Below are positions 12,484 through 63,243 of a DNA stretch of 64,000 nucleotides, one piece after another (position 1 is the first letter of the stretch; the number at the start of each line of letters is the position of its first letter). Below the pieces are notes generated by a model. It was not told the DNA's origin. It was given only the letters and a program-made list of their open reading frames with translations, and ran no database searches. Origin of the DNA: a virus (lineage: Duplodnaviria > Caudoviricetes); the IMG/VR virus record IMGVR_UViG_3300028048_000113, positions 24,561 to 88,560 of that record; one strand, written 5' to 3'. Both the position numbers and the translations under genes were made by a program.

Positions 12484-13766
12484 TACAATTACAAGCTTTA
12501 AACTATATTTTGAAAAATCACGACTCTGACTTATTAATGACTTATGGTCCTGAGTATTTCTTTAATTATACAAAAGAATATGATGCCATAAAGCAACATT
12601 ATCTTAAGTACAAGACAGTACCTGATGCAGTTTCAGTTCTCGAAAAAGTTCCTGATTTTCAGATTATTGATACGAACGAATCTAAAAAGTATATCGAAGA
12701 GAAGCTTTTTGAAGAGTTTGTTTATAAAAGAACAAGAGAAATCATGAGCGACAAGAAAGACTTATTCAAGTCTGATGCAGTTAGAGCAAAAAATGAAATG
12801 ATTGCTGAGTTACAGAACATGCATCCACCTAGAAGCAGTTATGGTACAAACATTGTCGCTAATGCTCAGGAAAGATATGAGAAACTCATTAGTACCTTAG
12901 CATCTCCTAATGCAGACAAGTTTAGTACAGGACTTCCTGAATTGGATATGAAACTTGGTGGAGGAATGCATAGAGGTGAAGAAGTAATTGTTGTATTTGC
13001 TAGAACCAACAATGCTAAAACCTGGATTGCAGAAAAGTTTGCAGTATCAGTTTGGGCAGAAGGAAACAATGTTGGATTCTTCTCACCTGAGATGACAGCT
13101 ACCTCAATTGGTTATAGATTTGATACCTTGTTTAAGAATTTCAATAATAAAGGAATTCAGGGTAGTGATATAACATACAATACAGATAAGTATAAGACAT
13201 ATATTGGTCAGTTATCTAAGAACAAAACAGTCTTTAGTGTAACATCACCTCTTGACTTTGATAGAGAAGTTACTGTAACTAAGTTGAAAAAGTGGGTTAC
13301 AGATTTGGACCTTAAAATGTTAGTTATTGATGGTTTAACATATCTCCATGATGAAAAGGGCAATGGCCATCAGAATGAAACACAGAGACTTACAGATATA
13401 TCAGAAGACCTTATGACATTGTCAAATGAACTTAGCATCCCTGTTGTTGTAGTTGTACAGGCAAACAGAGAAGGTGCTAGAGATGCAAATGGTGAAGTCA
13501 ATAATGATACACCTGAAATTGATACAATTCGTGGTTCTGATGGTATTTCTCACAATGCATCAAGAGTTATCTCAGTAAGATGCAAAGATAATATCTTAAC
13601 ACTTTACCTTAATAAGAACCGTTATGGTGAAGTAAATGTCAAGTTAATCTATAAGTATGACATCAATGAAGGTAAGTTTACCTACATAGCAAATCCTAAA
13701 GATGGCTTAAATATTGATGCTGATGCAATAAGAGATGAATTTAAAGATAATACAGAGAATTTCTAA
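12480..13766 (+). CDS. dnaB: Replicative DNA helicase, DnaB family
   Basis: TGLPELD, ARTNNAKT, FFSPEM, LVIDGL, QANR, SDGISHNA, KNRYG. Confidence 0.88.
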   Translation: MIQLQALNYILKNHDSDLLMTYGPEYFFNYTKEYDAIKQHYLKYKTVPDAVSVLEKVPDFQIIDTNESKKYIEEKLFEEFVYKRTREIMSDKKDLFKSDAVRAKNEMIAELQNMHPPRSSYGTNIVANAQERYEKLISTLASPNADKFSTGLPELDMKLGGGMHRGEEVIVVFARTNNAKTWIAEKFAVSVWAEGNNVGFFSPEMTATSIGYRFDTLFKNFNNKGIQGSDITYNTDKYKTYIGQLSKNKTVFSVTSPLDFDREVTVTKLKKWVTDLDLKMLVIDGLTYLHDEKGNGHQNETQRLTDISEDLMTLSNELSIPVVVVVQANREGARDANGEVNNDTPEIDTIRGSDGISHNASRVISVRCKDNILTLYLNKNRYGEVNVKLIYKYDINEGKFTYIANPKDGLNIDADAIRDEFKDNTENF

Positions 13767-14719
13767 TGGATATTCAAAATATAGAATTACAGACTGATAT
13801 TTATAAGATTTTAGACAGATTATTTTCTGAACTGAATAGAAGAGGTTCCTCTTTATTTAGTCAGGGTTATAAAGAATCTGGTGACTATCTTATGGTTCAG
13901 TGTCCATATCATAAATTTGGACAGGAAAAACACCCATCTGCTGAGTTTAGAAAAGCAGATGGCTTTTTCTACTGTTTTAATTGTAAAGCATCTCATCCTC
14001 TTCCTTCTGTTATCTCAGATTTATTAGATACAAATGGTAGAGCTTGGTTACTTGAAAATTTTGATGGTGTTGATACCTCAAATAGAGAAGTAGACAAGTT
14101 AGACTTACCTGAAAGAAAAGTAAAAGAGAAAGTTTATATAGATCCTAAGGAACTAGATAAATATAGAGTAAGACATCCTTATATGTATCAGAGAAAGATG
14201 ACAGATGAGATAATAGATAAATTTGACATTGGATATGATGAAGAAACTCAATGCATTACTTTTCCTATTAAAGATGAATTTGGAAATATTCTTTTTATAG
14301 CACGAAGAAGTGTTAATACAAAATACTTTCACTATCCTAATAATGTTGACAAACCTCTTTATGGTCTCTATGAAATTTATAGAGAAATGAAAGCAGGTAA
14401 GAATATTGATACTATTTATGTATGTGAAAGTATGATTAATGCTCTTACTCTTTGGAGTTGGGGAAAGTATGCAATAGCATTGAATGGAACAGGTTCTTAT
14501 AAGCAACATGAAATGCTAAAGAAAACACCTTTTAAAGAATTGATATTAGCCCTCGATCCAGATCCTGCAGGAAGAAAAGGAACTGAAAAGATAAAAGCTG
14601 CTCTAGAAAGCACTAAAATAATTAGTGAACTGAATATTCCTGAAGGTAAGGATGTTAATGATCTTACTTATGACGAATTCACTAGATTGACTGTAAAAGA
14701 TGATTTTTGGTTTTTATAA
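13766..14719 (+). CDS. dnaG: DNA primase (CHC2 Zn finger + Toprim)
   Basis: CPYH...CFNC, YVCESMINA, LALDPDPAG, KDVND. Confidence 0.88.
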   Translation: MDIQNIELQTDIYKILDRLFSELNRRGSSLFSQGYKESGDYLMVQCPYHKFGQEKHPSAEFRKADGFFYCFNCKASHPLPSVISDLLDTNGRAWLLENFDGVDTSNREVDKLDLPERKVKEKVYIDPKELDKYRVRHPYMYQRKMTDEIIDKFDIGYDEETQCITFPIKDEFGNILFIARRSVNTKYFHYPNNVDKPLYGLYEIYREMKAGKNIDTIYVCESMINALTLWSWGKYAIALNGTGSYKQHEMLKKTPFKELILALDPDPAGRKGTEKIKAALESTKIISELNIPEGKDVNDLTYDEFTRLTVKDDFWFL

Positions 14720-15419: not shown

Positions 15420-15812
15420 ATGTATCTAGAAATTACAGAAGAAGAGCTTAATAATAGAATAAGACACATGGATTACTTGTTCTATTTCAAGAGTCAAGGT
15501 GGACATTTTGGATCAACTGAAGAGGTCTTAATGATCTTTGCTGTCCAGAATAAATTTGCTATCTACAATGGAAAGATGGATTATCTTTCTTTGATGTCAT
15601 CTTGGCAATATGAAAAGTTTGTTAAGAAAATTACAAGATATACAAAGAACTGGAAAGTTCATGACAATAAAAACTGGGCTGGAGATAACTATAACATAGT
15701 TATTAACTTTGATGGTGCTCCAAGGTCTTACTGTGGAAATATTTTATGTAAGAATTGGAAAAAGTTTTATAGATTAGTAGATTGTATTAGAAAAGGAATG
15801 ACAATTGTATGA
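15420..15812 (+). CDS. Hypothetical protein
   Basis: 130 aa, downstream of promoter 15359-15388. Confidence 0.55.
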   Translation: MYLEITEEELNNRIRHMDYLFYFKSQGGHFGSTEEVLMIFAVQNKFAIYNGKMDYLSLMSSWQYEKFVKKITRYTKNWKVHDNKNWAGDNYNIVINFDGAPRSYCGNILCKNWKKFYRLVDCIRKGMTIV

Positions 15813-16606
15813 GTGCATTAGATAAGAGAATGAAGGAATTTTATGAGTTTATCCCAAAAACAAAACTCATGAGAAGATGTCCAGTTGCTATTAGAATTGA
15901 TGGTAAGGCATTCCACACATTTACTAGAGGTTTTAAGAAGCCTTTTGATAAAATTATGATTGAAACTATGCAGGAAACAACCAAGTATCTTTGTGAGAAT
16001 ATTCAGGGTTGTGTTCTTGGTTATACACAGTCAGATGAGATTACCTTGATCCTTATTGATTATAAGAATCTTGAGAGTTCAGCTTGGTTTGACTATGAAG
16101 TTCAGAAGATTTGTAGTGTTGCTGCATCTATGGCAACCATGCAATTTAATAGATTGTTTGCTAAAAAGGTTGCTATGTATAAGGATAAGTTAGATGATCT
16201 CAGAGCAATGAGAATTATTACTGATACAGATATTGCATTAGGTCTTGCTTATGAGAAGTCACTTGAGAATGGTGCAATGTTTGATGCTAGATGTTTTAAT
16301 ATTCCTAAGGATGAGGTTTGTAATCTTATCTATTGGAGACAGCAGGATGCTTCAAGAAATAGTATTCAGATGCTGGCTAGAACATATTATTCATCTAAGC
16401 AGCTTCAGGGTAAGAAAAATACTATGATTCAGGATATGCTCTTTAAAGACTTTGGTATCAATTGGAATGATTGTCCAGTAGTTGAGAAGAGAGGTACAGC
16501 TTGCATTAAGGATGAAGATGGCAAGTGGTTTATTGATGAGAATATGCCTATTCTTAGAGCCAAAGACAGACAGTATGTTGAGAAACTCATCTATCTAGAC
16601 AAATGA
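15809..16606 (+). CDS. thg1: tRNA(His) guanylyltransferase / Thg1-like protein
   Basis: IRIDGKAFHTFT, GYTQSDEIT, FDAR, WRQQDASRNSI. Confidence 0.9.
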   Translation: MSALDKRMKEFYEFIPKTKLMRRCPVAIRIDGKAFHTFTRGFKKPFDKIMIETMQETTKYLCENIQGCVLGYTQSDEITLILIDYKNLESSAWFDYEVQKICSVAASMATMQFNRLFAKKVAMYKDKLDDLRAMRIITDTDIALGLAYEKSLENGAMFDARCFNIPKDEVCNLIYWRQQDASRNSIQMLARTYYSSKQLQGKKNTMIQDMLFKDFGINWNDCPVVEKRGTACIKDEDGKWFIDENMPILRAKDRQYVEKLIYLDK

Positions 16607-27242: not shown

Positions 27243-27539
27243 ATGAGAAAGCTTACTAAAAAAGGTAGCATTGATGTTCAGACTTTTATGTTATTATGTT
27301 TCATGTTAATTATTATTTCATGTCTAATAATGATATTTGTAGTTTCTGGATCAAAAAATCATTGGAATGATGGACGCTGTCCTAAATGTAATACAGAATG
27401 GAGATATGTTCAGGCAGTTGGTCATCAATATACTACAGGATATATTTATGTTTGTGATACTTGTGGTGATAAGATAGAAACAAATCATGAACCTGATTGG
27501 AAAACAGTAAAGACAGGTGAATTAAATGAGAGCAATTAA
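27243..27539 (+). CDS. Membrane-anchored zinc-ribbon protein (paralog of 1756..2145)
   Basis: TM helix then CPKC...QAVGH...YVCDTCG. Confidence 0.55.
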   Translation: MRKLTKKGSIDVQTFMLLCFMLIIISCLIMIFVVSGSKNHWNDGRCPKCNTEWRYVQAVGHQYTTGYIYVCDTCGDKIETNHEPDWKTVKTGELNESN

Positions 27540-28764
27540 AGACATAACTGGACAGAAATTTGGTAAGCTTACAGCACTTTATCCACTAGAAAAAAGAAAT
27601 TCTAGTGGTAATGCTATTTGGCACTGCAAATGTGAATGTGGTGGAACTAGAGATGCTATAGCTAGCTATTTAATAAATGGTTCTACCACAGGATGTAAAG
27701 ATTGTCAAACAGCAAGAGGAAAATTTAAAGATATAACTGGTCAACAGTTTAATTATCTAACTGTACTTTACAAAACAAACAAAAAAGACAATAGAAACAG
27801 TAGAATTTGGCACTGTAGATGTGTCTGTGGTAAAGAAGTTGATATTCCTGGAGATAGACTCAGAAGTGGTCAAGCTAAATCTTGTGGATGTAAAAATCTT
27901 AGAAAAAGCTGTAGTATGGGAAGTACTCATGCTATTAAGAATTCTACTGATTTGACAGGTCAGAAATTTGGTAAGTTAACAGTAATGAGTAGATCAGCTA
28001 ATAAACATAGAAAGGGTAGATACTGGACTTGTAAGTGTGAGTGTGGTAAAATAAAAGTATATGATACCAATACTCTTATACATAAGACTTCTTGTGGTTG
28101 TGATAGAAAGAGAAAGTCTTATAAGATGAGAACTTTTGATTCAGTTTCAGTTGGTGATAGATTTGGAAAACTCACAACTGTCTATTATTTACCTAGTAAA
28201 CCGGGTCATTGGATCTGTAAATGTGACTGTGGTAATTTAGCTATAATTAGAACTAATGATCTTAAAAAGGGTGTTACTCAGAGCTGTGGTTGTAGAAAAA
28301 TAAAAAATCCTGATAAATTACCTTATTATAAAAAATTGCTTGATGCCAAAACAGATTTAACTGGAATGAGATTTGGTAAACTCACAGTTGTTAAAGATAC
28401 TGGTAAATCAAATGGAAAGGGTAAACTATGGCTTTGCAAGTGTGATTGTGGTAACACTAAAGAAGTAACAGATTCAGCTCTTAGATTTAATATGACTAAA
28501 ACCTGTGGTTGTACAAAATATAATGGAAAAGACTTAACAGGTCAAAGATTTGGCAGACTCACAGTACTTGAGAAAACAAACAAGAGATGTCATGGTTATA
28601 TTGTTTGGAAGTGTAAGTGTGATTGTGGAAACATAGTAGAAATACCTATGCATAATCTTTCATACAATAATTCAACTAGATCTTGTGGATGTCTATTAAA
28701 AGAAACTAAAGCCACATGGGGACAAAGAGTAAAAGATAATTATAAAGAGTGGAAAAAGTTATGA
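27526..28764 (+). CDS. Cys-rich repeat protein (6 copies of DLTGQxFGxLT..WxCxCxCG..SCGC)
   Basis: Repeats counted in the translation; this unit usually accompanies phage HNH/AP2 proteins. Confidence 0.75.
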   Translation: MRAIKDITGQKFGKLTALYPLEKRNSSGNAIWHCKCECGGTRDAIASYLINGSTTGCKDCQTARGKFKDITGQQFNYLTVLYKTNKKDNRNSRIWHCRCVCGKEVDIPGDRLRSGQAKSCGCKNLRKSCSMGSTHAIKNSTDLTGQKFGKLTVMSRSANKHRKGRYWTCKCECGKIKVYDTNTLIHKTSCGCDRKRKSYKMRTFDSVSVGDRFGKLTTVYYLPSKPGHWICKCDCGNLAIIRTNDLKKGVTQSCGCRKIKNPDKLPYYKKLLDAKTDLTGMRFGKLTVVKDTGKSNGKGKLWLCKCDCGNTKEVTDSALRFNMTKTCGCTKYNGKDLTGQRFGRLTVLEKTNKRCHGYIVWKCKCDCGNIVEIPMHNLSYNNSTRSCGCLLKETKATWGQRVKDNYKEWKKL

Positions 28765-29735
28765 GATTTATAGATTTAACTGGTAAACAGTTTGGAAGAC
28801 TCACTGCTTTATATACTAATAGAAGAAATGGAAAAGGCAATATTATTTGGCATTGTAAATGCCAATGCGGAAATGAAACTGATGTTTTAGGAATTAACCT
28901 CAGAAATGGAGCTACAAGATCTTGTGGTTGTTTATTTAAAGAAACTCATAAGGTTATTAAAAAACCAAATGATTTAACAAATCAAAAATTTGGTAAATTA
29001 ACTGCACTTGAAATGGTGGGTAAGAATTCTATTGGTGCTATTAAGTGGCGCTGTAGATGTGATTGTGGAAATTATAGAGACGTAGTAAATAGTTTATTGC
29101 TTAATGGTAAAGTTACAGCTTGCCTTGAATGTTCTAAATTAGGTCGTCAAAAAGACATAACTGGGCAGCAATTTGGTAATCTAACTGCATTATATTCTCT
29201 TAATAAAACTGATGAGCATCATTCTATAATATGGCATTGTAAATGTATTTGTGGTAAAGAATTAGATATATCTTTAATGAAATTAAAAAATGGTTCTGTA
29301 TTTTCTTGTGGATGCTCAAAGAAACCTAAAAATCCTACACCATTGACAGATAAACGTGTTCATAATTTAATTGGTCAGAGATTTGGTAAGTTAACTGTAA
29401 TTGCTGATACAGGTAAGTCAAATCGTTGGGGTAAAATTTGGCTATGTCAATGTGACTGTGGTAATACTAAAGAAGTAGATAGTAATAAACTTCATATGAA
29501 AAGTGTTACATCTTGTGGTTGTGTAAGAAAAGATCTAACTGAATATAAAAGTAGACATTTAGAGGGCCAACAGTTTGGTCAATTAACTGTTCTTGAATAT
29601 GCTGGAAAAAACAAATATAGTCAATCCATTTGGAAATGTAAATGTAGTTGTGGCAATATTAGATATGCAGTTGGTAGTTATCTTGTAAGAGGAATGGTAA
29701 AATCTTGCGGTTGTTTAAGAAATAAAAACAAATAA
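28761..29735 (+). CDS. Cys-rich repeat protein (5 copies)
   Basis: Same repeat unit; no catalytic domain. Confidence 0.75.
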   Translation: MRFIDLTGKQFGRLTALYTNRRNGKGNIIWHCKCQCGNETDVLGINLRNGATRSCGCLFKETHKVIKKPNDLTNQKFGKLTALEMVGKNSIGAIKWRCRCDCGNYRDVVNSLLLNGKVTACLECSKLGRQKDITGQQFGNLTALYSLNKTDEHHSIIWHCKCICGKELDISLMKLKNGSVFSCGCSKKPKNPTPLTDKRVHNLIGQRFGKLTVIADTGKSNRWGKIWLCQCDCGNTKEVDSNKLHMKSVTSCGCVRKDLTEYKSRHLEGQQFGQLTVLEYAGKNKYSQSIWKCKCSCGNIRYAVGSYLVRGMVKSCGCLRNKNK

Positions 29736-29736
29736 C

Positions 29737-30636
29737 ATGAATAAAGAAAAATATTTTATAGATTTACAAGATATGAAATTTGGGCGGTTAACTGCCCTTT
29801 TTCCAGTAGAAGAGAAAGCTAAGAATGGTGAAACTCAATGGATGTGCCAATGTGAATGTGGCGGCACAAAAGTTGTAAAAGGCAGTCATCTTAGAGGTGG
29901 AAATACTCAATCTTGTGGATGTATTAGAAATAAGAAAATAGAAGGTCAGAAGTTTAACAAATTAACTGCTATCAAGTCAAGACGAAGAGATGATGGTAGA
30001 GTAGTTTGGTTATGTAAGTGTGACTGCGGAAATGAAATCGAAGTTCTTACTGCTGATCTTCTAAATGGTTTATATGTTTCTTGTGGTTGTACAGGAAGTA
30101 GAAGAACTAAATTTAGAACAGTTGAGTCATTTAATACAAAAGCAATCTCTAATTTTGTGGGTAAGAGATTTAATGAATTTGTTATTCTTGCTCCTACTCA
30201 TAAGAGATATTTTGAGGATGTGCTTTGGAAATGTAGATGTGACTGTGGTAAGATTTTCTTTGCACCCACAGCATTTATTTTGAATGGTAAAATAAAATCA
30301 TGTGGTCATTTACATGAAGCTTTCAATAAGAATTTTGGTAAAGACATAAGACGAAAATCGAATAGATATGTATTCAATAAGATAGGAATAGGTTTTACTA
30401 TCAAAGGTGAAAAGTTCTATTTTGATAAAGAGGACTATGACAAAATAAAAAACTATTGTTGGCGTTTTAATGAATATGGAACTCTTATTGCTCATGATCC
30501 TGAGTCATGGCCAGAAAAGAAATCAGTCATACCGGCATGGAGAGTTATATTTAATGAGAAAGATAAGTCAAAGAAAATAGTATATAAAAATAAGAATAAA
30601 TGGGATCTTAGAAAGAGGAATTTGGAGGTGATCTAA
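29737..30636 (+). CDS. Cys-rich repeat protein (3 copies) with degenerate HNH-like C-terminus
   Basis: C-terminus FYFDKEDYDKIKNYCW...IVYKNKNKWDLRKRNL resembles phage HNH DHINxNxLDNRxxNL but lacks the His. Confidence 0.65.
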   Translation: MNKEKYFIDLQDMKFGRLTALFPVEEKAKNGETQWMCQCECGGTKVVKGSHLRGGNTQSCGCIRNKKIEGQKFNKLTAIKSRRRDDGRVVWLCKCDCGNEIEVLTADLLNGLYVSCGCTGSRRTKFRTVESFNTKAISNFVGKRFNEFVILAPTHKRYFEDVLWKCRCDCGKIFFAPTAFILNGKIKSCGHLHEAFNKNFGKDIRRKSNRYVFNKIGIGFTIKGEKFYFDKEDYDKIKNYCWRFNEYGTLIAHDPESWPEKKSVIPAWRVIFNEKDKSKKIVYKNKNKWDLRKRNLEVI

Positions 30637-42133: not shown

Positions 42134-43189
42134 ATGGATGATAAAGAAAAATTAGAAAATGAAGCTATAGACACTGAGTTTGTAGAATCAGATTCTAATG
42201 TAGATAATGAAAAAATAGGTAAAGATAGTGAAGGTCTCGATACTCCAAAGGTCGAGACCAAACCTGTTAAGAAAAAAGTAATGACAGCTAAATCATTTGC
42301 AGCTATTATCATTGCTATTATTATTGCTGGTGGTGCTATTGGATATTCTATATATGAATACAATAGAGCAAAAGCCGGAGTAGATGCTGTTATGAGTCAT
42401 AATTATGAATCAAATGGAACTACCGGGACCTCAACATCTGAAGTTACTTCATCTTCATTGAGTGATGAAGATCTTTGGGAAAGTTATGTTACAGATAGAG
42501 AAGCTGATAATGGCATAACTGGAACTACTAGAATAGTTCATGGTGAATATGGTGATTATGCAGTTGATGAAGCTGGTCGTGAATGGGAATTAGAAGAAGG
42601 AATAAATGATCCAGAAAATAATGCAATGGCAACAATGGATACTGAGGAAACTTTAGCTCCTATCTCATTTAATCCTCAAAAAGATGTTAATGCAGATAGT
42701 AGTCTTATTGGAATTTCAACAATTTCAGTTGATGGTATTATTTTAGACTTTCCTGTAGACTACAATACAGTTAGTTCTAAATTTACATTGATTAGAGATG
42801 AAAATGAATCAGTTGATGCCATTGATCCTGATGAAATTATAAATGATGAAATCTCTTTAATGTATAAATCAAAAACAGGAACTGGAAATGTTTGGTTTAC
42901 ATTTAGTTCTGAAGGTGCATCTAAGAAATTAAGTGAATGTAAGTTAGTTAAAATGGAAATAACTAGTATCATTCATGGTACACCTACTAATCATAATATG
43001 TCAATTGCATTAGGTGGTGGAGTAAATTTTGGTGATGATTATGACACAATAAAATCAAAATTTCCTGATGTACCTGTAGATCACTTAAATAAATATCCAG
43101 CTTTTATGTTAATCTATGAAAAAGATGGATATAAATATTATTTCTTTGGAGATAATAACGGCTTAACACAAGTCACAATAGAATTCTAA
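42134..43189 (+). CDS. Membrane-anchored surface protein with Ser/Thr-rich linker
   Basis: One TM helix (FAAIIIAIIIAGGAIG), GTTGTSTSEVTSSS linker, globular C-domain. Confidence 0.6.
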   Translation: MDDKEKLENEAIDTEFVESDSNVDNEKIGKDSEGLDTPKVETKPVKKKVMTAKSFAAIIIAIIIAGGAIGYSIYEYNRAKAGVDAVMSHNYESNGTTGTSTSEVTSSSLSDEDLWESYVTDREADNGITGTTRIVHGEYGDYAVDEAGREWELEEGINDPENNAMATMDTEETLAPISFNPQKDVNADSSLIGISTISVDGIILDFPVDYNTVSSKFTLIRDENESVDAIDPDEIINDEISLMYKSKTGTGNVWFTFSSEGASKKLSECKLVKMEITSIIHGTPTNHNMSIALGGGVNFGDDYDTIKSKFPDVPVDHLNKYPAFMLIYEKDGYKYYFFGDNNGLTQVTIEF

Positions 43190-43202
43190 AAAGGAGGGAG
43201 AC

Positions 43203-44510
43203 ATGAAAAGACTATTAAGAATTTTAGCTGTAATTGCTGTTGTCTTAGGTGTGTTATACATGTGTGGCTATAACCTCACATCTATAAAACATTCATGGGA
43301 AATTCAGGCTCCTGAGAAAGTTTTTAGTCCTTTAAAAGAAGCAATCCCTTCTGCAGTACAGAATCTTGGAACTCCAAATGATAATAACACTGATCCAACT
43401 ATTGTCACAGGAACAGATGATGTTAATTGGACTATTCCAACAAACAATGATCCTTTATTTAATCCCAGTAAAAATACTGATGAAACAATTAGTATTGCAA
43501 CTAGTGAACAAAATGGTGGATCTGGTAATGGTGGATCCGGTAGTATTGGTGCAAGTAATGAAATCAATATTACTAATAAGAATGGTGGAACTGGTGAAAC
43601 TGAGAAACTTGATGTTACATTGTCTAGAGACATCACAGTTAATATCAATGGTAAAGAAGTAAATCTTAAGACACAAACCTCTATTTCATTTGTTAAATGG
43701 TTAGCAAATAATTATAAAGATGGTAGTGATGTTAGTTACTATGATAAGGATGGAAATCCTATTGGAGAAACAACAACCACTGAGACAATAGAGGCAACCA
43801 CAGAAACATCAGAAACTACAGAAACCTCAGTAACTGAAACTACAAAGGAAACTCCTTCAGTCAATCCTAAATTGATTGATGATGTACAAGTTAGTTATGA
43901 TGATCAGCTTTCTGATTATGCACATCTTGTAGTATTAATTGCAGATATTGAAGTAGTTGATGAATTACCAGATTATAACACTTTACCTAAATATAATAGA
44001 GATACTTTTGAAAAGCCAGTAAAGAGTTATATTTTAGGCGGACTTAAGATAAATAGAAATAATTATTCTTGGCGTACAAGTCCTTTCTTTAATCAGAAAG
44101 ATTTTACTTTTACTTGTCCTTATACTGGAAAAGTAATTACTGACACAGATGATAAGAAACAAGACAATGACTTTGGTACTCTTGATTATGACCATATTGT
44201 ACCTCTCAAATCAGCATATATTAGAGGTGCTAGTGAATGGTCAAAGGATAAGCAAAATGAATATGCTTATGACCAGTGGGTTGGTGTAGATGTTCTCAAC
44301 TCAGCAAATAGAAGTAAAGCTGATAAAGGACCTCTTGAATACTTACCTGAAAAGAATATTGAAGACTATTGCTATTCTTGGTTACTTATTTGTAGTAAGT
44401 ATGATTTAAAGATGACACAAGCAGAGATTGATCTTTGTAAGAAATATATCGAGAATGCTCTTAATAGTGGTGAACCTGTAACTCACTTAGGTGGACACTA
44501 TGATGGCTAA
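43203..44510 (+). CDS. Exported/anchored protein with C-terminal DUF1524-type HNH nuclease
   Basis: Signal/TM helix, Thr/Glu-rich linker, CPYTG, YDHIVPL, GASEW, NSANRSKAD, YCYSW. Confidence 0.72.
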   Translation: MKRLLRILAVIAVVLGVLYMCGYNLTSIKHSWEIQAPEKVFSPLKEAIPSAVQNLGTPNDNNTDPTIVTGTDDVNWTIPTNNDPLFNPSKNTDETISIATSEQNGGSGNGGSGSIGASNEINITNKNGGTGETEKLDVTLSRDITVNINGKEVNLKTQTSISFVKWLANNYKDGSDVSYYDKDGNPIGETTTTETIEATTETSETTETSVTETTKETPSVNPKLIDDVQVSYDDQLSDYAHLVVLIADIEVVDELPDYNTLPKYNRDTFEKPVKSYILGGLKINRNNYSWRTSPFFNQKDFTFTCPYTGKVITDTDDKKQDNDFGTLDYDHIVPLKSAYIRGASEWSKDKQNEYAYDQWVGVDVLNSANRSKADKGPLEYLPEKNIEDYCYSWLLICSKYDLKMTQAEIDLCKKYIENALNSGEPVTHLGGHYDG

Positions 44511-44590
44511 AATTGTATCATTATTTTTATTTACTTATTGAAATAATGACTATATAATATTATTATAAACTTTTTAAAGGAGATTTTTAA

Positions 44591-44743
44591 ATGCAAGGAA
44601 GAAAGCCAACGAGATATGAATGGCCTATACTTGAAGCAAACAACCTTAACACAAAAGAATGGCTAGTGCAGAAGAATGCTAATGATTATATGCAATTAGT
44701 CAACAAGAAAACTAAAAAAGAAATAATAATAAATAAGGAATAG
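44591..44743 (+). CDS. 50-aa small phage protein (not in ORF track)
   Basis: MQGRKPTRYE...EWLVQK; RBS AAAGGAG; behind promoter 44530-44558. Confidence 0.55.
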   Translation: MQGRKPTRYEWPILEANNLNTKEWLVQKNANDYMQLVNKKTKKEIIINKE

Positions 44744-44789
44744 TCTTTATGACTATTCTTTATTTTAATAAAAGGAAAGGAACTGATAT

Positions 44790-46112
44790 ATGAACATTAT
44801 TTTAAGTGGTCCAGATGCATGCGGAAAGACAACTCTCGGTGAAAAACTTAAGGCAAAGTATAACATGCCTATTATTCATTCCACAGCAACTACAAGAAAT
44901 ACGTTAGAGTATCATTTGGATTTGATTGACTATCATGATAATACTATCTTTGATAGATTTTCAGTCGGTGAAATGATTTTTCCTAAGATTTATGGAAGAC
45001 CTGCAATGCTTACTGAGGAAGAGTTTTTTAAGACTCTTAGAAGAGTAGAAGACAATAATGACATGTATATTATCTTTACATGTTCAGATGTTGAAATTCT
45101 TAAGCAGAGATTGATTGAACGTGGTGAGGAAGATTACCTTGCTGAAATCGTACAGCAATGTGAGTTATACAATGAAGTAGCTATGAAGATGGCTAACTTC
45201 TTTGGTAATTATAAGAATTTTTATGCTATTGACATTGCAGAACCTCATGCATATGACAGACTTGATAAATGGATTGATGAACATTATGGAAAGATTACAC
45301 CTAATGTAGCATACAAGAAATTAGCAAATGACCTTTTGGATTATGGACATCCTATTCCTTCTAGTAACCCTCGTGGTACTACAAAGGAACTTACTGATTA
45401 TTCATTCACTATTGATGATTTGGATGTCAATGAATGCATTACACTTAAGTCAGGCGGTACAAATCTCACTTATGTAGCAGCAGAGATTCTTTGGTACTGG
45501 TCATCTAGAAATGATCTTGCTTTTATTAACAAGTTCTCATCTTTCTGGAATAAGGTAACTGATGATGGTGTAACTGCCAACTCAGCTTATGGTTATATTC
45601 TTCAGCAAAAGCATGGTTTTAACCAGATTGAGAAGATCATTGAATTGTTACAGAAGGATCCTTTTTCAAGAAGAGCAGTTCTTAACATCAATGTACCTAA
45701 TGAAAAGGTTATTGAGACTCATGATGAAATGTGTACAATTTGTTTAAACTATCAGATTAGAGATGGTGTTCTTGATTGTAACTGTGTAATGAGATCTAAT
45801 GACTTTAACTTTGGTCTTAGAAATGACATTGCATACTTCATCTATCTCCAGAAGTACATTGCAGATAGACTTGGAGTTGGTTATGGTAAGTACACACATT
45901 ATGCATTCTCAATGCATATGTATGACAGAGACTTTAAGTTCTGTAAGAAGGTTGCTTATGGTGACATGGAAACATCAGATGAAAGACTTGATGTAAGAAA
46001 GCTTATTGACAATAAGGATACTCTTATTGACTGGATTGATAATAAATTTACATCAAAGGAAGACTTTACTCAGATGCTTAAGGATATGAATATCATTTAT
46101 CCAGCAAAGTAA
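44790..46112 (+). CDS. Fusion: dNMP kinase + dCMP hydroxymethylase (thymidylate synthase fold)
   Basis: N-part GPDACGKTT and FDRF (NMP kinase). C-part DEMCT..QIRDG..MRSNDFNFGLRND has Asp at the pyrimidine-specificity position, as in T4 gp42. Confidence 0.8.
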   Translation: MNIILSGPDACGKTTLGEKLKAKYNMPIIHSTATTRNTLEYHLDLIDYHDNTIFDRFSVGEMIFPKIYGRPAMLTEEEFFKTLRRVEDNNDMYIIFTCSDVEILKQRLIERGEEDYLAEIVQQCELYNEVAMKMANFFGNYKNFYAIDIAEPHAYDRLDKWIDEHYGKITPNVAYKKLANDLLDYGHPIPSSNPRGTTKELTDYSFTIDDLDVNECITLKSGGTNLTYVAAEILWYWSSRNDLAFINKFSSFWNKVTDDGVTANSAYGYILQQKHGFNQIEKIIELLQKDPFSRRAVLNINVPNEKVIETHDEMCTICLNYQIRDGVLDCNCVMRSNDFNFGLRNDIAYFIYLQKYIADRLGVGYGKYTHYAFSMHMYDRDFKFCKKVAYGDMETSDERLDVRKLIDNKDTLIDWIDNKFTSKEDFTQMLKDMNIIYPAK

Positions 46113-46139
46113 AGATAAATAAAAAATAATTAACAATTG

Positions 46140-46169
46140 AATACTCAGCCTAGAATGGCTGAGTATTTT
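46140..46169 (+). terminator. Intrinsic terminator
   Basis: AATACTCAGCC/GGCTGAGTATT stem followed by TTT. Confidence 0.7.
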
Positions 46170-46190
46170 TAATAAATGGGGAAATAGAAT

Positions 46191-46562
46191 ATGAAAAAGT
46201 TAATTACGATTTTGTTATGTGTAGGAATGATAGGTATATGCTCCTGTAATCTTATTCAGAAGACAGAAACTATGCCTGAGCAGCCAACCTTTACTTCTAG
46301 AGTTAGAATGACTACAACAAAAGCCACAACTAAAATGACTACAATTATGACAACTACCGAAGAAACAACTTCTTCTGAGGAGACAACTGAGGAGACTACA
46401 GAAACAACAAAAGCAACTCCTAAGAATGTATATGTAGCCAAAGGTGGTAAGTATCATTATAATAAGAAGTGTAAGGATCTTAAGAAGAAAAAGTACAGTA
46501 CAATGACCTATGAGAAGGCCATAAAAGCTGGATATAAGCCTTGTACAAAATGCGTTAAATAA
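46191..46562 (+). CDS. Lipoprotein-like protein with Thr-rich linker and small metal-binding C-domain
   Basis: Signal with Cys (GICSC), Thr/Glu tract, YVAKGGKYH..C..AIKAGYKPCTKC. Confidence 0.65.
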   Translation: MKKLITILLCVGMIGICSCNLIQKTETMPEQPTFTSRVRMTTTKATTKMTTIMTTTEETTSSEETTEETTETTKATPKNVYVAKGGKYHYNKKCKDLKKKKYSTMTYEKAIKAGYKPCTKCVK

Positions 46563-52099: not shown

Positions 52100-53131
52100 A
52101 TGATTGATTCAAAGTATTATGATATTAAAGAAAAAATAGAAGAGTCAGATTTTTGGACAAATAAACTTTATAATATGGCTTATGAAAGAGTAAAGGATAG
52201 ACAATATCCTCTTGTTATTCCTTCATATAATAGACCAGATAATAAAATGACGAAATATATCTATGAACATACTATTGATGAGGAACCTTGGGATATTTAT
52301 GTAGTTGTTAGAGCTTCTCAGAAAGAAATATATGAGCAGGCAGAATATTTTAAGAAATGTAATGGTAAGATTAAACTTCTTCCTTTTCCTGATGAAACCA
52401 TTAATGATTTAGGTAAAGTTAGAGTAGAAACAATTAAATATTTTTCAGGTAAGAAAGATTGTATCTTCATGATTGATGATGATACACTTGATATAACATA
52501 TACAGTACCTTATACAAGAAAATCTGGTGCTCAGATTTCAATGTCAGTTACTGATAAATTTATTGGTCATAATACTAATTTTGCTAGAATTTTAGCAATG
52601 TGGCAGGTTGCTATGGAGGAAACTCTTAAAAAGCATGATAATGTTATTATTTCCTGTCCTATGATTGCTGGGTTTAGTTGGGCTCCTAATTTCTGTGATC
52701 CTGAAAATAGTTTAAAGATAATGAGTGGTGCTCAGGCTTGTTGTATGTGTATTAATATAAAAGCATGTAATAAGTATGACATTACTTTTAGAACTAATAA
52801 GGGTAATGGTCATGAAGATAAAGACTTTGTAATTAGAGCAATTCAAAAAGGCTGTATGACAGCTGAGTATAGATGGCTTGCTTATTATTCAGATGGTCTT
52901 GGTACTGATTTCTTAAATAGTGGGATAGCTGAAAGAATGGCTAAGCAACATGATGAAATGTATGCTAATTTTAAAGATGTTGATTATGTTAAGTTTATTA
53001 TTGATAGAAAAGGTCTTAAAAATGTAAGAGTCAATTGGAGTAGAGCAACTAAGTTTTATAATAACTTAACTGGTGAAAACATTAATAAGACAAATAATAA
53101 ATTTAACTTAGCGGAGATATTAGGACTATGA
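52100..53131 (+). CDS. GT-A glycosyltransferase, T-even glucosyl-hmC glucosyltransferase-like
   Basis: VIPSYNR, VVVR, IFMIDDDT (DxD), HEDKDF. Confidence 0.72.
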   Translation: MIDSKYYDIKEKIEESDFWTNKLYNMAYERVKDRQYPLVIPSYNRPDNKMTKYIYEHTIDEEPWDIYVVVRASQKEIYEQAEYFKKCNGKIKLLPFPDETINDLGKVRVETIKYFSGKKDCIFMIDDDTLDITYTVPYTRKSGAQISMSVTDKFIGHNTNFARILAMWQVAMEETLKKHDNVIISCPMIAGFSWAPNFCDPENSLKIMSGAQACCMCINIKACNKYDITFRTNKGNGHEDKDFVIRAIQKGCMTAEYRWLAYYSDGLGTDFLNSGIAERMAKQHDEMYANFKDVDYVKFIIDRKGLKNVRVNWSRATKFYNNLTGENINKTNNKFNLAEILGL

Positions 53132-54237
53132 AAGCAATAGGAATGCATATATTCTGTGGAAGTCAGACAATCGGACATTTACTTGAAGGTTGGAAGATAG
53201 ACACAGTACTTGAAATTTCAGAGGATATGCCTAATCAAAATGCATATCATTTCATTAAGAATTATCCTAAGATTCAGGTAAAAAAACCTTCTGAGTATGA
53301 GGATAATGAAGCATATCTTGACAAACTTAAATCAGAGAATTATGATCTTTTATATTCAAATCCTCCCTGTTCTGGTTTGTCTCAGATAAATAGAAACGCT
53401 AGTGCTGATTGTGCAATAAATGGTAATATCTATAAAGTAATCAACATGGTAAAGAGAATAGAGCCTAAGACATTCTTGATAGAAAATGCTCCTACTCTTA
53501 CTACAACTGGTTTGCCTATTCTTAAGGATCTAGTAAAACAGTTACCTAATTATTATGTAACAATAATCAATGACTATGCTAGAAATCATAATGTTCCTAT
53601 GAATAGACGTAGAACAATGGTTGTAGGATTCTGTAAAAATAATTTTACAAAGATGCCTCAGATACACCAACATGCAGTTGAGACTGATCTTAAGACAGTT
53701 CTTGCTGGAGTTGATTATACATACAATAAAGAATATATTAAGGAAACTGATAAAGATTTGTTTAAGTATTACAAGTATGTAAAGCAAGGCAATGATCTTT
53801 ATGATGCACTTGTTGACAATGATGTAATCATAAACAAAGCAGTTGAGAAGATTAAGTATAATAGAGAGCATAATCTCAGAAGCTGGAATAAGTCACCTTG
53901 GAGACCTGATAAATTAGCACCTTCAATGACCTCTCTTACTAGAATTATTCACCCCACAGAGGATAGAGATTTTTATATTAGAGAGTATGCAGCTCTTATG
54001 GGTTATCCAAATGACTTTGTTTTCTATACAGATGGTCAAACACCTATTGTGCAGTGTATAGCTCAAGGTGTTCCTGTTAATTTTATTAGATATATTTCTA
54101 GTGAAATTAAGAATTCTTTTAAGACAAAGGATTTTGTTGATTGTGAGGTTCTGTATATTAATCAGTGTAATCCTGATAGTATAAAGACTAAAGAATATAC
54201 AAGAGAGTCATTTGATGGAACTGAAAAGATTATATAA
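53128..54237 (+). CDS. Divergent C5 cytosine DNA methyltransferase-like protein
   Basis: Motif IV NPPCSG, motif VI IENAP, motif VIII PMNRRR, C-terminal REYAALMGYP..F and AQGVP; motif I degenerate (FCGSQ). Confidence 0.78.
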   Translation: MKAIGMHIFCGSQTIGHLLEGWKIDTVLEISEDMPNQNAYHFIKNYPKIQVKKPSEYEDNEAYLDKLKSENYDLLYSNPPCSGLSQINRNASADCAINGNIYKVINMVKRIEPKTFLIENAPTLTTTGLPILKDLVKQLPNYYVTIINDYARNHNVPMNRRRTMVVGFCKNNFTKMPQIHQHAVETDLKTVLAGVDYTYNKEYIKETDKDLFKYYKYVKQGNDLYDALVDNDVIINKAVEKIKYNREHNLRSWNKSPWRPDKLAPSMTSLTRIIHPTEDRDFYIREYAALMGYPNDFVFYTDGQTPIVQCIAQGVPVNFIRYISSEIKNSFKTKDFVDCEVLYINQCNPDSIKTKEYTRESFDGTEKII

Positions 54238-56489: not shown

Positions 56490-57017
56490 ATGACAGAAAA
56501 GATTTTGATTTGTGGTAGAAGTGGTTCAGGAAAAGATACATTTGCCAAGCTATTAAAGAGCTTTGGACTAAAGGATGTTTGTTCCTATACCACAAGACCT
56601 AGAAGAGATGGTGAAGGTGATACACATACTTTCATTACTGAAAAAGAAGTTAAGAACTATCCTAACAAAATAGCAGTAACTGAAATCAATGGTTATACAT
56701 ACTTTGCCACAAAAGAACAACTTGAAGAGGCAGACTATTACATTATAGACCCTAATGGAATTGAATACTTGCACTCTCATTTTCCTGAAATCAAGTATAG
56801 AATAGTTTATATCTATGCTGATAGAAAAATAAGAAAGCAGAGAGCAATTTCTAGAGGTGGAGCAAAGGAAAGAAGCATTTTCATATCAAGAGACAAATCA
56901 GAAAATGAACAGTTTAGTAAGTTTGAAAAGAACCTCTACAAGACTAATGTAACTGTATTTGTCAATAATGAAGATGATATTGAAAATCTTAAGAAATTTG
57001 CTAAGATGTATTTGTAA
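56490..57017 (+). CDS. gmk: Guanylate kinase-like nucleoside monophosphate kinase
   Basis: GRSGSGKD, SYTTRPRRDGE, NGYTY, IIDPNG. Confidence 0.8.
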   Translation: MTEKILICGRSGSGKDTFAKLLKSFGLKDVCSYTTRPRRDGEGDTHTFITEKEVKNYPNKIAVTEINGYTYFATKEQLEEADYYIIDPNGIEYLHSHFPEIKYRIVYIYADRKIRKQRAISRGGAKERSIFISRDKSENEQFSKFEKNLYKTNVTVFVNNEDDIENLKKFAKMYL

Positions 57018-61818: not shown

Positions 61819-63243
61819 ATGATAAGACCACTTTTAGGAGGAGGCTGTAGTGAATGTAAGGCTACAGATGATAGAGTAGGCAAAGGACGATGCAAGCATA
61901 TTTTGTGTCAGAGTTCTAGTAATGCTTTAAATACTCTTAATATCATTCAAGAAAGTGGTGGAGAAGCTTATCTTGTTGGTGGTTGTGTTAGAGATATGGT
62001 TCTTAATCAAAAACCTCATGATGAAGATATTACCACTTCTTTAACTCCAGATCAAGTTATTAGTTTATTTGAAAGTAAAGGATATGAAGTAATTCCTACA
62101 GGATTACAACATGGAACAGTAACTGTCATGATGGACGGTGAAGGATATGAAATTACTACATTCAGAAAAGATGGTGATTATTCTGATGGCAGACATCCTG
62201 ATTCTGTTGAGTTTAGTACAAATGTAGAAGATGACTGTAGTAGAAGAGACTTTACTTTTAATGCTATGTATTATGATGGTAAACAAATCGTAGATACTTA
62301 TAATGGTCAGAAAGACATTGAGGATAAGGTAATTAGAACTGTTGGAGATCCTGATGAAAGATTTAATGAGGATGCTCTTAGAATGATGAGAGCAGTTAGA
62401 TTTAGTTCTAAATTAGGATTTACAATAGCTCCAGAAGTTACTGCTTCTATTAGTAAAAATAAGGATCTAATTCATAATGTTTCTGCTGAAAGAATTCAAG
62501 CTGAGATGACAAAAATGCTTCAAGGTCCTAATAAGAGATATGCATTACAAACAATGCAACAAACAGGCTTAATGAAAGAAGTAATGCCTGAGCTTGATGC
62601 TCTTAAATCAGTAAAACAGAAGAGTAAATATCATTATGAAGATGCATTTGAACATACAATGTCTGTTATGGACAATTGTCCTGATGATGTTCAAGTTCAG
62701 TATGCAGCAATGTTTCATGATTTAGGAAAAGGAACTACCAAACAAGTAGATCCTGATGGAACTGAACATTTTAAAGGTCATTCTACAGATTCAGCAAAAC
62801 AAGCTGATGAAATTTGTAGAAGATTAAAAATGTCTACTGCAGATAGAGAAACTATTGTTAAATTAGTTAAGTATCATGACAGACCAGATGATGCTGAGAT
62901 GAAGAATGTCAGAAAATCAGCTGCTAAGTTTGTATATGAACATCAAGACTTAACTGACGATGAATATAAGAAATTAGAGCAATTATGGATAGCTGATAGA
63001 AAGGCTCATAAGGATCCTAATACTGAATCTTTGAATAATTATATTAAGGAACTTGATGGAGTATTAGCTGGACCACATAGAATAAGTGATTTATCTGTTA
63101 AAGGTAATGATTTATTAGCATTAGGTTATAAAGGACCTCAAATTGGTAAGGCACAGAAATACTTATTAAAGCAATCTCTTACTAATAATACAAATGATAA
63201 GGATAAGTTAATTAAATTATTAAATGGTTTTAAAGGAGAATAA
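61819..63243 (+). CDS. cca: CCA-adding tRNA nucleotidyltransferase with HD domain
   Basis: YLVGGCVRD, DEDITT, GTVTV, RRDFTFNAM, EDALRMMRAVRF, ERIQAE, FHDLGK. Confidence 0.9.
   Translation: MIRPLLGGGCSECKATDDRVGKGRCKHILCQSSSNALNTLNIIQESGGEAYLVGGCVRDMVLNQKPHDEDITTSLTPDQVISLFESKGYEVIPTGLQHGTVTVMMDGEGYEITTFRKDGDYSDGRHPDSVEFSTNVEDDCSRRDFTFNAMYYDGKQIVDTYNGQKDIEDKVIRTVGDPDERFNEDALRMMRAVRFSSKLGFTIAPEVTASISKNKDLIHNVSAERIQAEMTKMLQGPNKRYALQTMQQTGLMKEVMPELDALKSVKQKSKYHYEDAFEHTMSVMDNCPDDVQVQYAAMFHDLGKGTTKQVDPDGTEHFKGHSTDSAKQADEICRRLKMSTADRETIVKLVKYHDRPDDAEMKNVRKSAAKFVYEHQDLTDDEYKKLEQLWIADRKAHKDPNTESLNNYIKELDGVLAGPHRISDLSVKGNDLLALGYKGPQIGKAQKYLLKQSLTNNTNDKDKLIKLLNGFKGE

Follow-up and report, generated by a model that had tools for sequence, protein, structure and literature searches.

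Phage T4 uses two separate enzymes, the deoxycytidine monophosphate (dCMP) hydroxymethylase gp42 and the kinase gp1, together with gp56 and with alpha- and beta-glucosyltransferases, and the kinase step is followed by glycosylation of the DNA. The Enterococcus phages VPE25, VFW, 9183 and Planchet (Andrewesvirinae) are ~86-kb siphophages with a gene cluster for a kinase, a thymidylate synthase (TS)-like protein, a dUTPase and a glycosyltransferase similar to the T4 beta-glucosyltransferase; kinase and hydroxymethylase are separate genes in this group as well. The DNA of VPE25 and VFW is resistant to restriction and to bisulfite conversion, and the interpretation given was glucosylated 5-hydroxymethylcytosine (hmC) (PMC4999554). 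We analyzed a 64-kb stretch of viral DNA (the window), which is the final part of the 88,560-bp IMG/VR virus record IMGVR_UViG_3300028048_000113 (CheckV completeness estimate ~37%). One gene of the window, at positions 44790..46112 on the + strand, joins a P-loop nucleoside monophosphate (NMP) kinase domain to a TS-fold domain. We consider it likely that its product is a bifunctional enzyme of pre-replicative cytosine modification, which would make and phosphorylate 5-hydroxymethyl-dCMP (hm-dCMP) for incorporation into DNA, where a TAGT-family transferase would glycosylate it. Since this kinase-hydroxymethylase fusion has a DNA sugar-transferase gene nearby, the phage DNA is very probably built with glycosylated hmC. 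The original prediction had taken the gene for a kinase-dCMP hydroxymethylase pointing to hmC-type DNA, and the residues described below, the nearby TAGT gene and the cytosine-modified cultured relatives support it.

The predicted chemistry and the logic of the pathway are those of T4, but the two activities would here reside in one polypeptide. The TS domain is only ~24% identical to gp42, the kinase half has no detectable homologue in T4, and the glycosyltransferase is TAGT-type. The closest cultured homologues of both halves are those of VPE25, VFW, 9183 and Planchet (39-47% identity, with the same key residues), whereas the genome studied here belongs to a lineage of much larger rumen phages with an RNA polymerase (RNAP) of their own. 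The best match in both sequence and fold is MilA, the cytidine monophosphate (CMP) 5-hydroxymethylase of mildiomycin synthesis (PDB 5b6d/5jnh), which has Asp at both the N177 and the L143 position of the E. coli TS. MilA has no kinase fusion, and it prefers the ribonucleotide through Ala176/Lys133, where the fusion protein has Ser and Arg, as deoxy-specific enzymes do (PMC5175136).

Domains of the fusion protein and residues of its TS-fold half

The open reading frame (ORF) codes for 440 amino acids (aa) without an internal stop. The P-loop NMP kinase domain covers aa 1-168 (44790..45293, + strand), as judged by Pfam, PHROG, PDB and AlphaFold2 (AF2)/Foldseek. It is followed by the TS-fold, putative dCMP hydroxymethylase domain at aa 172-392 (45303..45965, + strand; PF00303, PDB, Foldseek and residue mapping), and by a helical extension at aa 393-440 that, with the stop codon, spans 45966..46112 on the + strand (alignment and AF2 secondary structure). 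Pfam families of P-loop kinases matched aa 1-150, PF00303 matched aa 175-386 (E 9e-23), and the PHROGs labels for the ORF are thymidylate synthase and thymidylate kinase; the claimed fusion of a kinase and a TS-fold domain is thus confirmed. The VPE25/Planchet enzymes also have this 48-aa C-terminal extension, which does not align with ThyA's C-terminal tail.

From annotated records we took the sequences of T4 gp42, SPO1 gp29 (a deoxyuridine monophosphate, dUMP, hydroxymethylase), the VPE25/Planchet enzymes and E. coli ThyA, and aligned the TS domain with them. The 12 functional positions of the T4 dCMP hydroxymethylase (dCH) that were checked, E60, S94, Y96, R123, R124, D145, C148, S169, D171, D179, H216 and Y218, are all identical in the fusion protein (12/12), where they are E232, S265, Y267, R294, R295, D312, C315, S336, D338, D346, H376 and Y378. 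A single Ser to Ala change aside, these residues are also identical across 120 fused homologues from metagenomes, and the catalytic Cys C315 (T4 C148) and the general-base Glu E232 (T4 E60) are invariant in the family. The sequences MRSNDFNFGLRNDIAY (aa 334-349) and HDEMCT (aa 311-316) hold the blocks that had been called gp42-like. D346, the Asp of 'RND', aligns with T4 D179 and E. coli N177, as had been proposed, and is Asp in 120/120 fused homologues; Asp179 of T4 dCH selects and protonates cytosine (PMC5175136, PMC6400193). Furthermore, D312-E-M-C315 and S265-A-Y267 match T4 D145 and the Ser94-x-Tyr96 hydroxymethylation signature. In the T4 enzyme Asp145, three residues ahead of the Cys, activates a water molecule together with Ser94-x-Tyr96, so that a hydroxymethyl and not a methyl group results, and the D145N substitution abolished hm-dCMP formation (PMC6400193). 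ThyA carries Pro, Leu and Asn at T4 positions 94, 145 and 179, and SPO1 gp29 carries Asn at 179.

The deoxyribose-type S336 and the phosphate-binding pair R294/R295 are also present. Their T4 equivalents are Ser169 and Arg123/Arg124, the latter contributed by the partner subunit, and the conserved Arg pair suggests that the TS half may form a homodimer. The acidic residue three positions before the Cys, the Ser-x-Tyr motif, the Arg pair and the deoxy-specific Ser are all in place, and the gp42-like character of the two blocks is borne out. A PDB search returned MilA (5b6d, E 2e-26) and T4 dCH (1b49, E 2.6e-12), both ahead of true thymidylate synthases. The AF2 single-chain model had a predicted local distance difference test score (pLDDT) of 94 and a predicted template modelling score (pTM) of 0.91, and with this model MilA was the top Foldseek match (E 4e-18), with MilA, TS and T4 dCH all at probability 1.0. 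At the level of sequence, the TS-fold half agrees in every diagnostic residue examined with a dCMP hydroxymethylase, and differs from ThyA, dUMP hydroxymethylase, CMP hydroxymethylase and 5-hydroxy-dCMP synthase.

The kinase half, its pairing with TS-like genes and the spread of the fusion

The kinase half contains a P-loop (G7-x4-G12-K13-T14), a D55-R56-F57 motif and the lid residues R107/R111/E113, and its Walker A, D55-R56-F57 and R107/R111 are invariant across fused and free homologues. The matching Pfam families are AAA_18 and Thymidylate_kin, with a score under the Pfam thymidylate kinase cut-offs, and the matching PHROG is phrog_761. The closest solved structure by sequence is YorR of the SPbeta prophage (2axp, E 1.4e-10). 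The AF2 model of the domain (pLDDT 94) also had YorR as its best Foldseek match (3kb2, TM 0.72), with adenylate, guanylate and thymidylate kinases as the next matches. YorR has the same compact P-loop NMP-kinase fold in a stand-alone protein; it is no guide to the substrate, because no published activity was found for it. The N-terminal half is a credible YorR- and thymidylate kinase (TMPK)-like P-loop NMP kinase by motifs and modelled fold, and this part of the original prediction stands. A homologue of the kinase domain was not found in the T4 or SPO1 genomes at E <= 1; hence the domain would be an analogue of T4 gp1 that lies outside the gp1 family.

The association of the two activities was followed in 149 of 150 listed representative relatives, which could be classified by fusion type. 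Three full-length proteins (P0122, P0123 and P0125) have the kinase-TS order. A 158-aa fragment, P0246, was rejected as a fourth case because its kinase and TS matches overlap. The reverse order, TS-kinase, was found in at least 15 proteins of 472-529 aa (P0147, P0162, P0168-P0172, P0180, P0182, P0184, P0188, P0200, P0202, P0204 and P0252), which form a separate, well-supported clade in the TS-domain tree and so indicate that kinase and hydroxymethylase were fused independently in both orders. At ~50 of 80 IMG/VR loci a kinase homologue is fused to the TS-like gene, adjacent to it or within ~3 kb upstream, and three arrangements occur: fused kinase-TS, fused TS-kinase and adjacent genes. In Planchet the two genes abut in frame with a stop codon between them, and in VPE25 they overlap by 7 nt, which shows the ease with which such a fusion could arise. 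This repeated, independent fusion and the synteny suggest that the kinase acts on the product of the hydroxymethylase.

The fusion is widespread. A word-indexed search returned more than 120 protein clusters of 429-456 aa with full-length coverage and 56-98% identity, some of them on contigs of 336-532 kb. Exhaustive HMMER over 1.8 billion representatives gave 7,964 relatives at E <= 0.001, of which 107 were at E <= 1e-30. A scan of viral contigs with the single sequence gave no match; the alignment-based scan succeeded. Contigs from other bovine and sheep gut studies span the ORF without insertions or deletions, and 13 of the 14 substitutions listed inside the ORF fall at third codon positions. 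With more than 120 clusters of the same architecture and independent contigs that differ only by substitutions, the fusion is no artefact of assembly. An apparent joint 46128→44719, based on two 18-nt AT-rich matches, was dismissed as low-complexity. A contig from an RNA library spans 44000-46554 without differences, but such libraries may contain DNA and it was not counted as proof of transcription.

A Shine-Dalgarno (SD)-like site, AAGGAAAGGA, can be read directly at 44772..44781 on the + strand, 8-17 nt ahead of the ATG at 44790. Further upstream, after a small ORF, an 8-bp hairpin followed by a T run lies at 44738..44758. The terminator-like call was on the - strand, but the palindromic stem and a TTTATTTT tail can be read on the + strand as well. 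If this is the terminator that it appears to be, the fusion gene probably begins its own transcript or is reached by read-through.

A kinase-hydroxymethylase fusion was not found described in the literature searched; the 2013 comparative genomics paper that defined TAGT lay outside that search and may mention such architectures. Within the literature covered, four features appear to be undescribed: the single-polypeptide kinase-hydroxymethylase, the YorR-type, non-gp1 kinase partner, the wide distribution of the fusion in rumen huge phages, and the parallel TS-kinase and TAGT-TS fusions. The chemistry and the strategy are already known, from textbook T4, and the closest cultured phages are known cytosine modifiers. 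A Nat Commun 2024 paper on enterococcal type IV restriction was set aside, since it concerned an unmodified phage.

Glycosyltransferase, C5-methylase and other genes of the window

About 6 kb downstream of the fusion gene, at 52100..53131 on the + strand, lies a gene for a 343-aa TAGT-family DNA glycosyltransferase (PF20691, E 5e-10, 40 bits against a gathering cut-off of 27.5 bits; phrog_842, E 2e-10). The PHROG is annotated as 'beta-glucosyl-HMC-alpha-glucosyltransferase', the family of the T2/T6 glucosyl-HMC glucosyltransferases, and by its sequence the gene product is the presumed glycosylating enzyme for hmC in DNA. Eight phage genomes, namely our own fragment and seven relatives, were searched for TAGT and C5-methylase genes, and in 5/8 TAGT is adjacent or fused to a TS-like gene. 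The protein P0126 (616 aa) is a natural fusion of an N-terminal TAGT with an Asp-type TS-like hydroxymethylase that is 48% identical to the TS half studied here; the TAGT-TS fusion locus (L028) is at G003:C1:16999-17610, within a 617-aa ORF of a complete 133-kb phage genome.

The stop codon of the TAGT gene is overlapped by a gene for a 369-aa C5-cytosine DNA methyltransferase homologue (53128..54237, + strand; PF00145, E 5e-28). Its PPC, ENA and RRR motifs are intact, but motif I reads IFCGSQ instead of FxGxG. This variant (IFxGSQ) is kept in the orthologues of seven related loci, which together with the intact PPC and ENA argues for a functional and not a decayed enzyme. The gene was found in 3/8 of the genomes searched, and on this distribution it is an accessory gene. 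A TAGT-type transferase with a neighbouring C5-methylase is shared with the phage C5-methyltransferase/TET/glycosyltransferase clusters (Burke et al. 2021, PMC8256090). Unlike in those clusters, no TET/JBP oxygenase was found (there was no Tet_JBP match in our own 88.5-kb record), and the hydroxymethyl group is predicted to enter at the nucleotide level, ahead of replication, and not through later modification of the DNA.

Relatives show related arrangements. On a 532-kb scaffold (L004) an SNF2 helicase gene is followed in turn by two unknown genes, the fusion, TAGT, a further unknown gene, a nucleoside diphosphate (NDP)-sugar transferase gene and a C5-methyltransferase gene, and the series from SNF2 through two unknown genes to the fusion is the same in the window. 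The gene between TAGT and the methylase on this scaffold (12921-14555) codes for a 544-aa NTP_transferase of NDP-sugar synthesis, a counterpart of which was not seen in the window; it hints at a dedicated, possibly non-glucose, sugar donor. Another relative has PolA, fusion, a 76-aa ORF, a T4-type alpha-glucosyltransferase (AGT), C5-methyltransferase, dCMP deaminase and DCD/dUTPase in this order. A complete, terminally redundant 394-kb relative carries a fusion of 70% identity with TAGT immediately downstream, and a dCMP deaminase and a dUTPase-family protein encoded side by side. Neither Tet_JBP nor a C5-methylase was found in this complete genome, so that a hydroxymethyl acceptor has no visible source there other than the nucleotide-level route. 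A dCMP deaminase was not found in our own record, but such absences are not evidence of genome-wide absence, because ~60% of the genome lies outside the record. Two further searches were uninformative: T4 gp56 gave no match in our record, two relatives or VPE25, in a search that had no positive control, and PF11440 (AGT) gave no match in any genome, the controls included.

Within the window, a stand-alone P-loop nucleotide kinase of 175 aa, guanylate-kinase-like, is encoded ~10 kb downstream of the fusion (56490..57017, + strand; phrog_1815, E 4e-35; AAA_18). It is 19% identical to the fused kinase domain and may be a partner in deoxynucleoside triphosphate supply; phosphorylation of deoxynucleoside monophosphates (dNMPs) may be shared between the two kinases. 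Between the SNF2 helicase and the fusion (42134-44510) are ORFs of 351 and 435 aa without a Pfam or PHROG family match. The N-terminal part of the 435-aa ORF contains a hydrophobic segment, and its C-terminal part a DYDHIVPLKSAY...NRSKADKGP block of nuclease-like appearance.

All genes of the window are on the + strand, and the G+C content is ~30%. Across 16 studies, the stretch occurs in gut metagenomes of bovine, sheep and goat origin. Its gene content, which includes RNAP beta/beta'-like proteins, a sigma factor, the two subunits of topoisomerase II, DnaB, a primase and a UvsX-like recombinase, fits a large virulent phage. The original prediction spoke of a probable Gram-positive-host element with its own RNAP. 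PHROG matches to RNAP beta subunits back the multisubunit polymerase. As for the host, SD-like motifs precede 77% of the window's 78 ORFs compared with 13% of random positions, and Enterococcus and Lactobacillus phages carry the nearest cultured homologues of the fusion protein; both agree with a Firmicutes-type host without proving it. The window encodes a Thg1-like tRNA-His guanylyltransferase (15809-16606) and a CCA-adding tRNA nucleotidyltransferase (61819-63243), while ARAGORN found no tRNA genes in the 64 kb. At 27526-30636 there are three tandem genes of repeated phrog_374 ('HNH endonuclease') modules, with 6, 5 and 3 stretches.

Proposed pathway, alternative readings and significance

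In the pathway that we propose, the C-terminal TS-fold domain would convert dCMP and 5,10-methylene-tetrahydrofolate to hm-dCMP, as its residue identity with T4 dCH suggests. Cys315 would attack C6, while Asp346 would read and protonate the cytosine; once the folate has left, a water molecule activated by Asp312, with Ser265 and Tyr267, would add to the exocyclic methylene. The YorR/TMPK-like domain would then phosphorylate hm-dCMP to the diphosphate (hm-dCDP), a step suggested by the fusion and by the gene pairing. A host NDP kinase might supply the triphosphate (hm-dCTP), which the phage replisome would incorporate, and TAGT, by its family membership and synteny, would add a sugar to hmC in the DNA. 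The fusion would keep hydroxymethylation and phosphorylation stoichiometric and spatially close. Since the confident single-chain model suggests a fixed arrangement of the domains, substrate channelling between the halves is plausible. Consistent with such a route, co-expression of a TS homologue and its cognate dNMP kinase drives modified deoxycytidine into E. coli DNA (PMC13326640). The phage DNA would be expected to resist host restriction enzymes, as does that of the T-even phages and VPE25/VFW.

Several findings weigh against this pathway. The phylogeny that had been proposed as a check supports it in part: in the TS-domain tree the query clade lies among Asp-bearing enzymes with VPE25/Planchet, apart from the Asn-bearing sequences, which group with the SPO1 dUMP hydroxymethylase, but T4 gp42 falls in a different clade. 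The kinase half is not homologous to T4 gp1, its nearest solved relative has no assigned function, and its substrate cannot be read from sequence. No dCTPase, dUTPase or MazG-type enzyme was found in the 88.5-kb, ~37% complete record, and without a dCTP-removing enzyme full replacement of cytosine is unsupported for this genome. Finally, a C5-methylase has no substrate on hmC DNA, and the seemingly functional C5-methylase of the window, translationally coupled to TAGT, would be left without one if every cytosine were hmC.

The kinase assignment is open to the alternative that the hydroxymethylase is correctly identified but the N-terminal domain is not an hm-dCMP kinase and instead phosphorylates deoxynucleosides, serves as a broad dNMP kinase for other nucleotides, or is an NTPase with a regulatory or scaffold role. 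We regard this as unlikely. The sub-threshold thymidylate kinase scores and the lack of an established activity for YorR would fit it, as would the second kinase 10 kb downstream, and sugar/shikimate kinases reach fold scores against this half similar to those of NMP kinases. However, the P-loop, the DRF motif and the lid arginines do not vary between fused and free forms, and independent fusion of the kinase to the hydroxymethylase in either order, with direct adjacency of the two elsewhere, is a pattern typical of consecutive steps of a pathway; moreover, in T-even-type systems the modified nucleotide depends on a dNMP kinase of the phage (PMC13326640).

The presence of the methylase admits a second departure from the proposed pathway, which we think rather improbable. 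In this lineage of very large rumen phages, a channelling fusion that releases hm-dCDP, without free hm-dCMP, combined with the conserved, non-canonical C5-methylase could give a mixed or new cytosine hypermodification. This might consist of glycosyl-hmC throughout the genome, while the methylase targets cytosines that are residual or specific, or of methylase-fold chemistry on hmC itself; in both cases a two-layer cytosine code would replace a plain copy of the T4 scheme.

Other alternatives concern the TS half. It might methylate dCMP to 5-methyl-dCMP, an activity reported for Xanthomonas phage XP12. Asp346 fixes only the identity of the base, cytosine, and not methyl versus hydroxymethyl, the C5-methylase of the cluster suggests that the phage uses 5-methylcytosine chemistry, and the comparison set held no XP12-type sequence. 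Yet the Leu143 with which ThyA shields its intermediate from water is Asp312 here, which with Ser265-x-Tyr267 forms the water-activating signature; the T4 D145N result (PMC6400193) counts against a methylase in the same way, and the associated TAGT and AGT transferases require a hydroxyl acceptor. A methylase is therefore very unlikely.

We find no more reason to see in the TS half a flavin-dependent 5-hydroxy-dCMP synthase of the RB69/DLP3 type, which would give DNA with glycosylated 5-hydroxycytosine. These newly found enzymes are also TS homologues with N177D and L143D/E, paired with dNMP kinases and glycosyltransferases, but Asn at E. coli position 169 (D169N) is diagnostic of them (PMC13326640). 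The corresponding residue, D338, is Asp in the fusion protein and in 120/120 fused homologues, and such an activity is highly improbable.

The reading in which uracil nucleotides are the substrate of the TS half, which would make it a thymidylate synthase or a dUMP hydroxymethylase, has the Pfam, PHROG and database names in its favour, all of which read 'thymidylate synthase'. Against these names, Asp replaces both the Asn of the N177 position and the Leu of the L143 position, the Asn-bearing homologues group apart with SPO1 gp29, and the protein reaches at best 81 bits with the NCBIfam TS models, where the cut-off is 174 bits, with every TS (ThyA) equivalog cut-off missed by far; we give this reading almost no credence. 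Just as implausible is a CMP hydroxymethylase like MilA/BcmA, or a post-replicative origin of hmC through the C5-methylase and a TET-like oxygenase with the fusion not the source of the base, for although MilA is the best PDB match and the C5-methyltransferase and TAGT pair resembles phage TET clusters (PMC8256090), the ribo-specific Ala176/Lys133 are replaced by the deoxy-type Ser336/Arg294 (PMC5175136), and Tet_JBP was matched neither in our record nor in the complete relative of 394 kb, where the methylase is missing too.

The pathway of hm-dCMP synthesis, phosphorylation, incorporation and glycosylation would add an abundant ruminant-gut lineage of large to huge phages (contigs up to 532 kb), whose hosts are probably Firmicutes, to those that replace cytosine before replication in the manner of T4. 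It would be a known anti-restriction strategy in a new fused form. The kinase fusions in both orders and the TAGT-hydroxymethylase fusion provide Rosetta-stone evidence that links three protein families, currently annotated only as 'thymidylate synthase', 'AAA domain' and 'TET-associated' glycosyltransferase. Because a single gene would supply both the modification and the first phosphorylation step, it may serve as a compact marker for hmC-type DNA in metagenomic phages, and as a convenient one-gene tool to introduce 5-hydroxymethyldeoxycytidine into bacterial DNA. DNA of this type would resist many restriction enzymes, and library preparation and methylation-aware sequencing of these phages may be biased by it.

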